Shown here one piece after another: positions 39,666 through 45,626 of a DNA stretch of 64,000 nt. The notes under the pieces are model-generated. The model saw only the letters and a program-made list of their open reading frames with translations. It searched no databases and was not told where the DNA came from. Each line of letters starts with the position of its first letter. The stretch's first letter is position 1. The DNA comes from Cyanidioschyzon merolae. Lineage: Eukaryota. The DNA lies in the NCBI GenBank assembly GCA_000091205.1, contig AP006490.2. One strand, given 5' to 3'. The translations under genes and the position numbers were made by a program.

Positions 39666-41336
39666 TTGCATCGTAACGTCGATCTGCGGCTGCACAGCGT
39701 TCGCGGGACCGGACCATCCCTGAGAGCCTCTTTCGCTGAGCGCTCGCTCGTTTCCAGCGAGTTCGTTGCAAGCGGCGATCGTTCATACCTTTATACTCGT
39801 GGGCGCTGCATCATGTTCGTAGCAGTGAGCCAGCTGTTTCCTGCTCGTCACCAGGGTGCTCCGCGCACCCTCCGCGGGGCCAACGGACGCAGCACCGACA
39901 CGTACCGTCGCACCGTAGGGCCGGCAGTGCCGAAGGATGCAGAGGGTGCGTACGAGTCGGCTTCTGGCCGGGTCTGTTGGCAACGATATAGCGCTTTAAG
40001 GGCGGCAGCTGACTCAGAGTCGTCTCCGAAGGACGCCTCCCAACGAGTACACTCTTCGCTTTCGAGTACCGGCAAGGGCGAGCACTCGAAGCATATGCGC
40101 CTGGAAACCAAAGTCGTGCATGCTGGAAGCCACCCTGAGGAGTACACAACCGATCCATACGGTCGGACTGTAGTGAATCCACCTGTGTACCACGCTTCTA
40201 CTGTGCTGTTTCCAAACGTAGCTGCTAAAGACTTTGCTAGCAAAGACTGGCCGTTTCGTGGTTTCTCCTACGGACGGCATGGGACGCCCACGCACTGGGC
40301 CCTGGAGGAGGCTTTTGCAGCACTCGAGGGTGGCGACAATGCCTGCTGTGTTAGCAGTGGGGTTGCAGCATGTAATGCAGCGCTCTTGGCGTTCCTGCGC
40401 TCCGGCGATCACATTCTGGTTGCGGACACCGTGTACGAACCGACGCGCCTGTTCTGCAACAGTTTTTTAGCACGATTCGGGGTGGAAACGACATACTACG
40501 ATCCCGCTGCTCCAGTTGAATCTTTGGAGCCACTTTTCAAACCAAAAGGTCGCACAAAGGTGGTTTTCGTGGAGTCACCCGGCTCGCTCTCGTTCGAGGT
40601 GCAGGATGTGCGGGCGGTGAGCGCACTCGCGCACGCTCATGGAGCGGTGGTCGTTATGGATAATACGTACGGACCAACGCTGTTCCAGCCTTTCGCGGCA
40701 GGTGTCGATGTAAGCTACAACGCAGCAACCAAGTACATCGGTGGTCATTCTGATTTAATGATGGGCCTGATCGCATGCTCCCGTGAAACGTACCGCAAAG
40801 TGAAACGATCGGTGATGGAGCTCGGATGCCCCCCAGGCCCTGATGACTGTTATCTGGCACTTCGTGGCCTGCGGACGCTCACAGTTCGTCTGAAACAGCA
40901 CGAACAGAACGGCCTTGTTGTTGCACGATGGCTGGAGACACGCCCTGAGGTTGCGCGTGTGATACATCCGCTGTTACCGAGCCATCCGCAGCACGACCTC
41001 TTCAAGCGTGATTTCCGGGGTGCGAACGGTTTATTTACCATACAGCTGCGTGACGTTTATTCGCAAAAGGCAGTGAACGCCTTTGTTGACTCACTGAAGC
41101 TCTTTGGTCTGGGCTTCAGCTGGGGCGGCTACGAGTCCCTGATCCTTCCGATCGACATCAACGCTGTCCGAACAGTGACGAAGTTTAAGTATGGTGATGG
41201 CTATGGGCCGACGCTGCGATTGCATGTCGGACTGGAGGATCCTCAAGATCTTTGCGCGGATCTCGCCCAAGGTTTTGCGGTGTTGGATGCGGTGGCCGGA
41301 CTCGCAGGTGAGGTTGCTCGTACGCCACCGCGCTGA
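39666..41336 (+). CDS. metC: Cystathionine beta-lyase (MetC; Cys/Met-metabolism PLP-dependent family) with a roughly 140-aa N-terminal extension
   Basis: It is colinear with bacterial and plant MetC from 'TKVVHAGSHPEEY' through 'FSYGRHGTPTHWALEEAFAALEGG', 'VFVESPGSLSFEVQDV' and the PLP-lysine region 'SYNAATKYIGGHSDLMMG' to 'VARVIHPLLPSHPQHDLFKRDFRGANGLF'. The extension before Met 39813 and Met 39945 is probably an organellar targeting sequence. Confidence 0.88.
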   Translation: MHRNVDLRLHSVRGTGPSLRASFAERSLVSSEFVASGDRSYLYTRGRCIMFVAVSQLFPARHQGAPRTLRGANGRSTDTYRRTVGPAVPKDAEGAYESASGRVCWQRYSALRAAADSESSPKDASQRVHSSLSSTGKGEHSKHMRLETKVVHAGSHPEEYTTDPYGRTVVNPPVYHASTVLFPNVAAKDFASKDWPFRGFSYGRHGTPTHWALEEAFAALEGGDNACCVSSGVAACNAALLAFLRSGDHILVADTVYEPTRLFCNSFLARFGVETTYYDPAAPVESLEPLFKPKGRTKVVFVESPGSLSFEVQDVRAVSALAHAHGAVVVMDNTYGPTLFQPFAAGVDVSYNAATKYIGGHSDLMMGLIACSRETYRKVKRSVMELGCPPGPDDCYLALRGLRTLTVRLKQHEQNGLVVARWLETRPEVARVIHPLLPSHPQHDLFKRDFRGANGLFTIQLRDVYSQKAVNAFVDSLKLFGLGFSWGGYESLILPIDINAVRTVTKFKYGDGYGPTLRLHVGLEDPQDLCADLAQGFAVLDAVAGLAGEVARTPPR

Positions 41337-41919
41337 TGCCGATTTACCTTCCTCGCGTGTCCGGGAGCGTGAACAGGCACCGCTGCTGTTGAGCAACAGG
41401 TATCCGCTACCAAGTCGCAATACAGAGAGTCGTGATGAACGCCTCTTGGCGGCGCTCGTCGATAACCTGCCCACAGGGTGTGTGCGCGTCCGTTCGCAGC
41501 ACCGCTGCGAGATCGATGGCGCTGCACTTGCCGGCACTGGCGCACGTACCTACGATCCACGTTGCATACGATCCCGCATATCGGAACCTTAAAGCATGCT
41601 TTACGACATGAAGAAAAATTTTGCGCACAGCAAGACACTGTCCAGAACCTGCTGACCGCGAGCGTATCACGAACGAAACAGCATTCGCAACGACGTACTC
41701 ACCGCCTTAGACGATGTCACACGAAGCCAACTGTCTCCCGTAAGCGCATCATCACACCCAGTTCTACGTCAAAGTATCGCCGTTCTCGGCTGTCCGACTG
41801 ATCAGGGAAAACCTGCGTAGATGACGAGGCACACGGCGCATACTGTGCGGCAGGACGTGTCGCAGATAGCACCCCGTACATACCGAAACCCACCACATGG
41901 ATTGAAACGCTTTGACCAC

Positions 41920-42273
41920 TCACGGCCGTTCTTCTTTCTTTGGATGCGAGGTCCTCTGTTGTATTTCAATGACAGAGCTCGTGCGTATGCGACGGTGGCC
42001 ACCCGGAGTCCGAAAATGTTCCAGTTTGCCAGCGTCGCACCACCTCCGTATTGTTTTCGGACACACGGCGAATATTTCAGCCGCGCGCGCAACTGTTATA
42101 GAACCAGACTCTTTCAAATCATCTCCAAGCATAAGACCTGGAGAGGCACGGTTTTGGTCGTGAACGTGCCGCTCCATGCCAAGATGCCCGTCATTTTCGA
42201 CGGGTCCGCCGATGTAGAGTTCCGTCTCCTCCCCGTCCATTTTCAAGCCAGACCTATTCACGAAACAAGCCAC
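41920..42273 (-). CDS. Small ORF (117 aa) with a bacterial/phage-type excisionase/MerR-like helix-turn-helix (HTH_17-like) at its C-terminus
   Basis: The segment 'SITVARAAEIFAVCPKTIRRWCDAGKLEHFRTPGGHRRIRTSSVIEI' fits the Xis/MerR HTH_17 pattern (LT.xEAAEllGVS..TvyRw...G.L.a.k.GG.wRi). The ORF lies alone in the 2.5-kb intergenic region between MetC and the membrane protein gene. Confidence 0.35.
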   Translation of the reverse strand: MACFVNRSGLKMDGEETELYIGGPVENDGHLGMERHVHDQNRASPGLMLGDDLKESGSITVARAAEIFAVCPKTIRRWCDAGKLEHFRTPGGHRRIRTSSVIEIQQRTSHPKKEERP

Positions 42274-43883
42274 TGAACTCCTGAAAGTTCTACTCGTAAT
42301 TGTATAGGGTTGCGGAGGCTACCCTGGCGAAAAAGACAAAAGTTGGTGCTCCCGACGTGGCTATATGGGTTGCCCGCGAGCGCTTTAAAACGTTGTTGGA
42401 GAACGACAAGCGCGAATAGAAGCTGGTTTAGCTAGGACAAAGTTGTACAGATGAGTACAATTCACTGCGAAACCGCTCTCGCGATCCATTTCGAATTGCG
42501 CACCTGCTGGTAATTTATGTCCAGAAAAGTTCGATTCGGAGGATGGAAGCGCGCGATTCAAGGCGCGTGTCACGCGTACGCAATTGATTCGTGACACACC
42601 GCGTGGCACGCCTGCCGATCGGCGCTGCAACGCTTGCGCCTCTGTCCGAGCGACGCGTCGAGCGTGGCACCGCATGTGTCCATCGTACGGAATCAGGAGT
42701 CAACCTGGACCCGACTGGCCCGATGCGGTATCGATGAGCGCCAAAACACACGGAGGACATTTGGGTCTCCTGGAGCGATAGGGTGCAGGTCGTATGAGCT
42801 ATGGGGATCGGCCATTTGGTCCTGGCGTGGCATCGATGGGTCAAAGCGGGTGCCGTCGGATACGCCAACGCTTCCTGTGAAATCGAGGATGCAGCCTCAG
42901 CCTGTTCGAGGACACTAACGTGTGCCGGCACGCTCGGTCAAGAATTGCTTCACGGAATAGAGACGCGATCGATCACGCAAGATTTCGGATTTCTCCATAG
43001 AGTCAAGATCATGTGTCAAACTGGGGTTCGGCCGGTTGCGAATGTCGCTACGACCAGCTCTGGAAGCGTTCAGTGTTCCTGTTTGAATTTGACGACGTTC
43101 CACAGAATCCAGATGTGTTGTTCGCTTGGGCGTTCTCGTTTCATCCAATGAAATACGCATTGCCGAGCCTGCCGCGTTTGTCTGCTGGGACGCTGGGTGC
43201 GCCCCGCCGTCACATTCGCCCTACTGGAATGGAACGGTGTTGCCGTACCATGACGGAAGCTGGCCCCAGAAGAGCCGCTTTTCAGCGTCAACCCAGTGCG
43301 TCGATTATCCGGTGTCGTCTGCGCCATAAGAAGCCAGAAATCCCGCTTCGTCCAGCAAGCGTCCGGATGGCGGCGCTTCTGTTGCTGCACAGACACAGCA
43401 CGTTCGCAAGTCCGCTCGGAACATCTTCTGGTACCGTGGATGCACGTCGATAACGTCATCAGGCGCGTACGCCAGGACACCTCCATACGCTGGTGCCGCG
43501 GACACGGCGACGATCCTGGTACGGCCTAGCAGTTAGCGCCGGACCAAGAGCTGCCTTCACGTCGTCACAGGCGTTGTTCAGGCGTATCGCGCTGGGCCGG
43601 GAACGCATGGAACTCACCCCATGGATTTCCCGTGCGATTCATGGAGCGGACGCTGCTCGGGCACCGGCATCGATGCGGGAATTTGCGAGAAAGAGAGACT
43701 GTCCAATACTGCCTATTGCTGGATATAATGGTCAGACACGGGCGCTGTGCTGCCGTCGCGGTACGTGAGGTCATCATGCGAAGATAGCAAACAGCGCCAA
43801 GTACTGCGGGCCTGCCCGGTCAATCTCCTGCCGTGTAAACCTGTCGTAACGGGAAACTGTGCTCATGCGCCAAGCAGGTTCGT

Positions 43884-45626
43884 ATGGAGCGCCTTCGAAA
43901 CCAAGTGGATACGTCCCTGACACGAACTGTTGCCCGATCCGTGGTTGTGGGCAATATTCTCACTGTGCTTCTGCTGGGTGTGCTGTACGCCAACTATCGC
44001 ATCTTCGAGGCCTACATTTCAAGTTTTCTTTTGGCGCTGCTTGCTGCGGAGGCGCTAGCTGAGAGCCGCGATCGACTCGTTCGCTGGCTCTCGACCTCTG
44101 AATCAGAAGCTGAAGGAAACGATGTGCAAAGGCCGCGGCGTTTGTGGCACTTCCTCCTCAACCAACTTGGCAAGTTGCAGCAGGCCGTTCGCGGAAAGCA
44201 CTGGTTTGTCTGGTTGCTCAGCGGCACGGCGTTGTTGTTGCTCACGGTACGTGTCCAGCACGGAGGTTTTCTGGTGTTCATCTGCCTTGCGGTGCTGGGA
44301 GGCTCCGCGCTGTGCACTTTGGCTGCTGCACGGTTTCTAGTTCGGCTCCGTTGGATACATGCACGGACTGCTGCAGCAACGTTACTGCTCGCCGCAGTGG
44401 TATCTCTCGTGTGCATTTTCGTGCTCATTTTCGTGACAGGTGTCGTCCAGGATCTCGTTGGCGCTGCTAGAGCGTTGGCGCGACTCGCCCAGGACGCAGC
44501 TACCTGGAATCGCATCGATCCGCAGGGTATCTTGGCGAAAGGCCTCGAGCAGCTCCAGACATTCCTTGCCGCCCATGTGGAGGTGGCGGAGCGCTTCGCT
44601 TTGCGCTTTCGTGATGTACTCAAGGATCTGGGATTCGATATGGAGAATACGGAGCGCTGGTGGGTCAAAAGCAGTGACCCGTCCTGGTGGCGGGACTTTC
44701 TCACGGGGGACTTGCACGCAAACGCAATGCTGCGGGAAACGACATCTCTGAGGGTGCCCAGCTGGCAGCAAGCACGCACTGTGGCCAAAAGGCTCTGGGA
44801 AGGTGCTCGGAAGAACGTCACACCTGGATCAATCGCACGACTTGGCAAGCATATTCGTTTGCACGCAAGTTCGGAACAGATTTACACTGGAGCCCGTCTC
44901 GTCATGATCCCGGTCATGCGACTAGCGCAGGCCTTTGGAATTTTGCTGACGTACAGCGACGGCACTGCAGCTTTTCTTGCTATGTTTTTCTTCCTGCTCC
45001 GACAACCCGGTTCAGTTGTACATGCACTGGTCCAATGGATCCCGTTCCAGAACACAGAGCGCAACCGGAAATTGGAGCAAACGCTGCGTACGGACCTGCA
45101 TCGCTTCGTGTGGAGTGCGCTGAGTCAACTGTATCTGCAATCGCTTTTTGCATGGTGCGTCTTCGTGACGTTCGGGTTGGAGCTAGAATTCCTGGTAGCG
45201 CTCTGCGTTGGTGTATCCGTGCTCATACCCGTACTGCCCGGGCCGCTTCTCTGGACGACACTGCTTGGCTTGCCCCAGGTGATGATGCGCACGTCTCTGG
45301 GTAGACTTTGGCGTTCGCATGCCGCCTTAGCCTTTGTCTGCATCAATCTGGTTGGGCAGAAAGTCTTGGTGCGTTTCTCGCGAAATGCTGACGACGAAGA
45401 CGCAGAGCAGGTGCAGCAACGTGCGGACGGTACCCTGACGCCCACGAACGGCCTGCTCACATTATCCGCTCTGTTGGGATGGCGGATCCTAGGTGGACTG
45501 CGCGGTGCACTGATCGCAAGTTGCTGCATCTTCCTGACATCGCTGCTCGTGCAATGTCTTGTAGATGATTCCTCCACCAGGGGATCTGAAAATAAGATAC
45601 CTCACCAAAGCGGAGGTGCGGCGTAG
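43884..45626 (+). CDS. Polytopic membrane protein, probably an AI-2E family transporter homologue (PF01594 / TMEM245-like)
   Basis: There are about 8 predicted TM helices. The C-terminal half reads 'LSQLYLQSLFAWCVFVTFGLELEFLVALCVGVSVLIPVLPGPLLW', resembling the AI-2E conserved region ending in the 'IP..G' motif. Confidence 0.4.
   Translation: MERLRNQVDTSLTRTVARSVVVGNILTVLLLGVLYANYRIFEAYISSFLLALLAAEALAESRDRLVRWLSTSESEAEGNDVQRPRRLWHFLLNQLGKLQQAVRGKHWFVWLLSGTALLLLTVRVQHGGFLVFICLAVLGGSALCTLAAARFLVRLRWIHARTAAATLLLAAVVSLVCIFVLIFVTGVVQDLVGAARALARLAQDAATWNRIDPQGILAKGLEQLQTFLAAHVEVAERFALRFRDVLKDLGFDMENTERWWVKSSDPSWWRDFLTGDLHANAMLRETTSLRVPSWQQARTVAKRLWEGARKNVTPGSIARLGKHIRLHASSEQIYTGARLVMIPVMRLAQAFGILLTYSDGTAAFLAMFFFLLRQPGSVVHALVQWIPFQNTERNRKLEQTLRTDLHRFVWSALSQLYLQSLFAWCVFVTFGLELEFLVALCVGVSVLIPVLPGPLLWTTLLGLPQVMMRTSLGRLWRSHAALAFVCINLVGQKVLVRFSRNADDEDAEQVQQRADGTLTPTNGLLTLSALLGWRILGGLRGALIASCCIFLTSLLVQCLVDDSSTRGSENKIPHQSGGAA

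Follow-up and report, generated by a model that had tools for sequence, protein, structure and literature searches.

CMH122C of Cyanidioschyzon merolae encodes a conserved BldC-like helix-turn-helix protein, probably of bacterial origin

We propose that CMH122C, a small nuclear gene of Cyanidioschyzon merolae 10D, encodes a bacterial-type, BldC-like protein that was probably acquired by horizontal transfer and kept as a host DNA-binding regulator, with an acidic N-terminus specific to the Cyanidiales. The gene lies on chromosome 8, within a stretch of 64,000 nucleotides (hereafter, the window). A preliminary description, made from the sequence, had presented it as an excisionase-like open reading frame (ORF) with a helix-turn-helix (HTH) domain, standing alone in a eukaryotic intergenic region. 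Our analysis establishes that CMH122C is a genuine, expressed nuclear gene, and that it is neither a stray phage excisionase nor a chance ORF. The features discussed below are the following:

41920..42240, minus strand: CMH122C coding sequence (CDS), 106 aa and a stop codon, predicted BldC-like small DNA-binding protein (exact protein match, RNA-seq, dN/dS, BLASTN)
42241..42273, minus strand: spurious 5' extension of 11 codons from a GTG start, non-coding (orthologue starts; upstream DNA unconserved)
41947..42102, minus strand: BldC-like or MerR-class winged HTH domain, residues 47-98 (Pfam, NCBIfam, PDB, Foldseek, pLDDT)
42103..42240, minus strand: acidic N-terminal half, residues 1-46, predicted to be disordered (net charge -8; low pLDDT)
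42172..42237, minus strand: invariant motif DGEE[TA]ELYIGGPxxxDGHLGxE, residues 2-23 (invariant columns in the alignment of seven algal sequences)
42430..42511, minus strand: conserved non-coding block, candidate promoter or operator (87% identity to Cyanidiococcus over 83 bp)

An ORF of 117 codons, reading from a GTG, is present at 41920..42273 on the minus strand, as first described. The 106-aa reading that begins at the first in-frame ATG (42240) corresponds exactly to BAM79798.1, XP_005536084.1 and UniProt M1VGJ2, the product of the annotated gene CMH122C (41920..42240, minus strand). Since the gene has long been annotated, its earlier framing as an unannotated ORF in intergenic DNA was wrong. 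The starts of the orthologues align with the ATG of CMH122C and not with the GTG, and the 33 bases located 5' of the ATG are unconserved and carry an indel in comparison with Cyanidiococcus. On these alignments, the GTG start is artefactual and comes from applying a rule made for bacterial ORFs. The same GTG-start product was encountered as protein P0006 (117 aa; JGI/IMG, 10 contigs), from environmental Cyanidioschyzon contigs processed by metagenome pipelines with bacterial gene calling; IMG names these metagenomic copies 'excisionase family DNA binding protein', with the same mis-start and the same reading as the preliminary description. On the plus strand, a 151-aa ORF (41821-42276) runs antisense across the entire CMH122C CDS. 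It shows no sign of being a gene and is one among many overlapping ORFs in this GC-rich sequence. The GenBank product name of BAM79798.1, 'similar to DNA invertase', is misleading and probably comes from a resemblance to the HTH of IS607 transposases. A literature search on the gene, its accessions, its product name and HTH_17 in red algae found no paper that discusses CMH122C in its main text, and the protein is not mentioned in the accessible part of the supplement of one C. merolae proteomics paper.

The presence of a C-terminal HTH_17 (Xis/MerR-type) domain was borne out by profile searches. Pfam HTH_17 (PF12728) matched residues 60-107 of the 117-aa reading over profile positions 3-49 of 51, with an E-value of 8.7e-12 and 45.6 bits for a gathering cutoff of 27. 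Such values place the match far beyond chance and, by its profile score, the protein is a member of this family. The Pfam models MerR (PF00376, 24.7 vs a cutoff of 28.2) and MerR_1 (PF13411, 15.4 vs 21.6) remained below their cutoffs, as did the other HTH models, and no second Pfam domain was found above cutoff in the CMH122C protein. Among the NCBIfam models, the best match was the BldC family, NF033787 (HTH_BldC), with 58.5 bits and an E-value of 4.4e-16, below its curated cutoff of 77. The excisionase-type model TIGR01764 passed its own cutoff (29.7 bits vs 28.8).

Structural comparisons pointed in the same direction. When a profile of the seven algal sequences was compared with the PDB, Streptomyces BldC (6AMK, 6AMA) was the best solved relative (E 6.5e-11), and BLASTP aligned CMH122C with Streptomyces BldC at 53% identity over 43 aa without a gap. 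The AlphaFold model, with a pLDDT of 80-87 for residues 51-90, contains three helices and a two-stranded wing. About 8 residues follow the last helix to the end of the protein, which has neither a coiled coil nor an effector domain. In a Foldseek search with this model, the top matches were BldC chains (47% identity, rmsd 0.9 Å over 49 columns), followed by the mycobacteriophage Pukovnik Xis (PDB 4J2N, 27% identity) and then by classical MerR proteins, RacA, CarH and the lambda gpNu1 domain. Overall, the closest functional analogue of the CMH122C protein is the transcription regulator BldC and not an excisionase; the excisionase-like label first given to the ORF is superseded by the better match to the BldC model, even if TIGR01764 passes.

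The BldC family is described as spread through bacteria, with no mention of eukaryotic members, and BldC itself strongly bends and shortens DNA and coats long sites (PMC5859096). A trait of the family is cooperative binding to 9-bp direct repeats (AATTNNNNC) with distortion of the DNA. In BldC, Lys26 and Arg30 make the base contacts in the major groove, Trp31 is involved in a backbone contact and a DNA kink, the wing residues His46, Arg47 and Arg48 are placed in the AT-rich minor groove, and Thr27, Thr29 and Lys33 contact phosphates; binding is abolished in the R30A, H46E and G44E variants (PMC5859096). The gap-free BLASTP alignment gives an offset of 36 residues between the BldC and the algal numbering. 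As in BldC, where they are K26, T27, R30, W31, H46, R47 and R48, the same residues are found in the algal protein as K62, T63, R66, W67, H82, R83 and R84, and all of them are invariant in the seven algal sequences. By contrast, two phosphate contacts differ, T29 being replaced by R65 and K33 by D69.

The head-to-tail interface of BldC opposes Phe21, Val23 and Trp31 to Leu11', Ile40', Thr42', Leu43' and Gly44', with a salt bridge between Arg22 and Glu16' (PMC5859096). F21, V23, W31, T42 and G44 are matched by algal F57, V59, W67, T78 and G80, which are invariant in the seven sequences, whereas I40, L43 and L11 are replaced by F76, P79 and S47, respectively. Because E16 is replaced by R52 and R22 by A58, the salt bridge of BldC is absent from the algal protein, and with these interface differences a BldC-style cooperative multimerisation is uncertain. 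Overall, the invariance of the DNA-contact residues suggests that the DNA-reading apparatus of BldC has been retained, and the head-to-tail interface only partly. Like BldC, the algal protein is a minimal MerR-class winged HTH without coiled coil or effector domain. Unlike BldC, it is encoded by a nuclear, eukaryotic gene and has an acidic N-terminal extension of ~45 aa in which a separate invariant motif is found. The winged HTH architecture is likewise common to the classical MerR regulators (MerR, SoxR, CueR, MtaN, CarH), from which the algal protein differs in having neither a dimerisation coiled coil nor a C-terminal sensor domain. Membership of the curated BldC family was not established on these comparisons, given a score short of the cutoff, a partly divergent interface and an added N-terminal region.

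The N-terminal half has a net charge of -8 in C. merolae, -15 in Cyanidium and -10 in a fourth lineage (described below), and the HTH half is basic in the same three lineages (+5 to +10). The AlphaFold model has a low confidence over residues 1-40 (pLDDT 46-53), and this half of the model was set aside as too uncertain for structural use. We searched for the invariant motif outside the algae. It was absent from the 150 best non-algal matches of an exhaustive HMMER search against 1.84 billion representative proteins, and a scan of the GTDB genomes with the motif gave zero bacterial relatives. No Galdieria orthologue carrying it was returned by the exhaustive protein search. Among the sequences examined, the motif thus appears to be specific to the Cyanidiales.

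Orthologues of CMH122C were found in Cyanidiococcus yangmingshanensis (106 aa, 94% identity), in Cyanidium caldarium (136 aa, 61% identity) and in the fourth lineage (Logan SRR17651693; 115 aa, 59% identity). C. merolae, Cyanidiococcus and Cyanidium have the same gene order, namely a membrane protein, the HTH gene, cystathionine beta-lyase, a WD40 protein, a proteasome subunit and Rpb2, and in these three species the HTH gene lies on chromosome-scale contigs between eukaryotic genes. On the SRR17651693 contig (L005 1-1638, 50% GC), the lyase gene adjoins the HTH gene on the opposite strand; this lyase shows 74-78% identity to its counterparts in C. merolae, Cyanidiococcus and Cyanidium alike, and so marks a separate deep lineage. 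Between C. merolae and Cyanidiococcus, we obtained a pS of 0.66, near saturation, a pN of 0.053 and a dN/dS of 0.035. The 94% identity of the CMH122C protein compares with 87% for the lyase and 53% for both the membrane protein and the WD40 protein. In a BLASTN comparison with Cyanidiococcus, the aligned part of the gene corresponds to the CDS, and the intergenic DNA does not align except for one block. Taken together, these comparisons indicate that strong purifying selection acts on the CMH122C protein.

CMH122C is also well expressed. RNA-seq values for this gene are 522-603 TPM in diploid and 472-553 TPM in haploid cells, and those of its neighbours are about 90-175 TPM (CMH121C) and 39-53 TPM (CMH123C; PMC13353863, Supplementary Data Set 8). 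The transcript level is therefore high, and nearly constitutive over both ploidy phases. In the same data set, CMH122C is not classed as a transcription factor by iTAK (PMC13353863, Supplementary Data Set 8), and it may consequently be missing from the regulator lists that are built that way. Among the explanations offered at the outset, a domesticated DNA-binding protein, probably of horizontal origin, is the one that these data favor, with a position conserved in at least three named species and in the fourth lineage, a dN/dS of 0.035 and a transcript level of 470-600 TPM.

CMH122C is flanked by CMH121C (cystathionine beta-lyase) and CMH123C, and the large ORFs nearby are eukaryotic: eIF3c, an RNA polymerase Rpb2-type subunit, a WD40 protein, a protein kinase and the cystathionine beta-lyase. 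CMH123C (43884-45626, plus strand, 580 aa) is listed as a hypothetical protein with 10 transmembrane segments (PMC13353863). Its match to AI-2E_transport was sub-threshold (27.3 bits vs 34.3) and, unlike the HTH gene, it is fast-evolving, with 53% identity to Cyanidiococcus and 31% to Cyanidium. The remark that the local GC content is like that of the host held in substance and could be made more precise: CMH122C has a GC of 0.54 and a GC3 of 0.52, the latter being close to the 0.55-0.63 of the other window genes that were measured.

No direct or inverted repeats of at least 14 bp and no Rfam matches were found within 41300-43900, and no tRNA genes were found in the entire window. As the preliminary description had stated, the flanks contain neither an integrase nor a recombinase, and none was found among the large ORFs examined. 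We also used P0015, a protein in which this HTH is joined to a serine-recombinase domain, as a tblastn query over 7 kb around the gene; only the HTH aligned and the catalytic part was unmatched. With no repeats, tRNA gene, Rfam match or recombinase remnant, nothing points to a mobile element, whether intact or decayed.

The one intergenic block that aligns with Cyanidiococcus (42430..42511) is situated 190-270 bp upstream of the ATG, and the remaining spacer does not align. Inside the block, an inverted repeat, TTGTAC-N6-GTACAA, was detected at 42443..42460; it occurs once in the window, where chance alone would give 0 copies. The block shows no recognisable conservation in Cyanidium. From its conservation and position, it may be a promoter or operator element. 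Scans for bacterial promoters and terminators around the gene gave nothing meaningful. An 8-mer, GCAATTCG, is common to the upstream block and to the BldC smeA-ssfA operator; this was a post-hoc match and was discounted. The frequency of AATTCGAAW in the window is at chance level.

To look for relatives elsewhere, we used the exhaustive HMMER search, which gave 8617 matches at E <= 1e-3. Full-length matches were confined to the algal clusters. Next in total score came metagenomic proteins in which the domain is repeated 2-8 times in tandem, so that the scores of the copies are summed. Examples of such tandem winged HTH proteins, within the series P0009-P0156, are P0014 (623 aa, 8 matched stretches) and P0009 (279 aa, 4), and by BLASTP two HTH matches were seen in 117 of the 150 best relatives. 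Such proteins may reproduce, within one chain, the head-to-tail multimer of BldC, an architecture that is not discussed in the BldC paper (PMC5859096). Scored per domain, the best relatives were stand-alone proteins of 64-66 aa with 50-61% identity, and the acidic extension was not seen in those examined. A search with the domain profile against 5.8 billion proteins gave thousands of proteins, mostly of 62-99 aa, with 40-58% identity to the algal domain where this was reported; among its top 120 matches, the only named ones were two algal species and a Frankiales MAG.

Phage and plasmid records gave HTH-only matches with 34-51% identity. These were BldC-family regulators on actinobacterial replicons, MerR-like HTH proteins of actinophages, and N-termini of IS607 transposases, the last in cyanophages, cyanobacterial plasmids and archaeal plasmids (39-49% over the HTH). 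None of the non-algal relatives that we found exceeds about 61% identity or matches beyond the HTH; they are small proteins of prokaryotic type, mostly metagenomic. The earlier remark that bacteria, phages and mobile elements are the usual home of this HTH class was right. A pattern scan of GTDB gave three weak Chloroflexota matches, through PKTIRRWC only, so that no donor can be named. The host-like composition and the lack of an outstanding donor are consistent with horizontal acquisition long ago. With 45-50 residues, the domain is too short to prove such an acquisition or to resolve the donor, which leaves room for vertical descent with loss elsewhere or for descent from an IS607-type HTH. 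CMH122C is not among the horizontal-transfer candidates in the main text and the accessible part of the supplements of PMC9812998, nor among those in the main text of PMC6629376, and in these parts neither survey names an HTH or BldC-like candidate.

Other explanations have to be weighed against this reading. The lead of the preliminary description was that the ORF came from an integrated phage or mobile element as its excisionase (recombination directionality factor), and the resemblances are real: TIGR01764 passes its cutoff, Pukovnik Xis is the second-best structural family, the IMG label names an excisionase, and the protein has the fold, the Pfam family, the small size and the lack of an effector domain of the excisionase-type HTH_17 proteins. 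Unlike excisionases, it has no partner integrase and no mobile-element context, and it is fixed in a conserved host position. The lack of an integrase or recombinase in the flanks and among the large ORFs examined, the lack of a tRNA gene or att-like repeat, and the core eukaryotic neighbours, whose order is kept across four lineages with synonymous sites near saturation, make this explanation highly improbable, and the context effectively refutes it. Still harder to credit is a spurious GC-rich ORF or contaminating bacterial DNA in the assembly. Short ORFs like this one, many of them overlapping, are common in this 56% GC sequence; against this stand the HTH_17 match (E 8.7e-12), the dN/dS of 0.035 and the 470-600 TPM, so that both a domain hit and transcription were found and a chance match can be dismissed. 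A contaminant is opposed by the chromosome-scale contigs of three species, with their eukaryotic flanking genes. Domain match, selection, expression and chromosomal placement together refute both.

A closer contender is a domesticated remnant of an IS607-type serine-recombinase transposase, or 'DNA invertase', of which only the N-terminal MerR-like HTH would have survived. The GenBank name suggests it, the NCBIfam IS607 transposase model NF033518 matches residues 63-111, and the N-termini of transposases of this family carry a MerR-like HTH that is 39-49% identical. However, the IS607 match reaches 27.2 bits for a cutoff of 110 and is confined to profile positions 2-50 of 187. The BldC model has double that score (58.5), and the best per-domain relatives are the stand-alone proteins of 64-66 aa. 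Unlike an IS607 transposase or DNA invertase, CMH122C lacks a catalytic serine-recombinase domain, which is missing from the surrounding DNA as well, the tblastn search over 7 kb having found the HTH only; there are no terminal or direct repeats, and the position between housekeeping genes is kept in four lineages. We consider this origin quite improbable, and with no recombinase remnant, repeats or tRNA gene and with strong purifying selection on the protein, the transposon relic suggested earlier found no support. The main rival is an abundant architectural (nucleoid or chromatin) DNA-bending protein that would not be a gene-specific regulator and would possibly act on organelle DNA. The nearly constitutive 470-600 TPM in both ploidy phases is consistent with such a role, as are the bending, shortening and coating of DNA by BldC (PMC5859096) and the architectural nature of the structural relatives Xis and RacA. 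The invariance of Arg66 and Lys62, the equivalents of the base-specific contacts of BldC, argues against it. Plastid and mitochondrial targeting peptides are typically basic, and the acidic N-terminus (MDGEETE..., net charge -8) is unlike them, which disfavors the organelle variant. Overall, an architectural role appears unlikely, although less so than the other rivals.

Under our preferred reading, that of a BldC-like protein acquired from bacteria and retained as a host regulator, the gene would most likely have entered by horizontal transfer from a bacterium before the split between Cyanidioschyzon/Cyanidiococcus, Cyanidium and the fourth lineage, and would then have been kept for its DNA-binding, regulatory function. 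The protein would be located in the nucleus and bind its target sites there, its recognition helix (Lys62, Arg66) reading the major groove and its His82-Arg83-Arg84 wing inserting into a narrowed AT-rich minor groove as in BldC, and on direct repeats the binding could be cooperative and head-to-tail. The effector part may be the acidic N-terminal motif, which would either recruit a partner or the transcription machinery, or fold back and inhibit the basic domain. In a bolder version, which we regard as plausible and put forward tentatively, CMH122C and its orthologues would be the first eukaryotic BldC-class regulators. The non-Galdieria Cyanidiales would have inherited the domain from an ancestor that captured it; joined to a novel acidic motif with an effector or auto-inhibitory role, it would have become a strongly constrained nuclear regulator with abundant expression, with possible autoregulation through 42430-42511.

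CMH122C itself is no discovery, since the gene is already annotated and its domain is listed in UniProt. The Cyanidiales are a standard case of horizontal gene transfer into eukaryotes, and the transfers documented in them concern, almost without exception, enzymes and transporters. C. merolae has a very small genome and gene targeting is possible in this alga, which makes the question directly testable. A transferred DNA-binding regulator, ranking among the most constrained of the local genes, would demonstrate that eukaryotic gene control can incorporate regulatory modules of bacterial origin.
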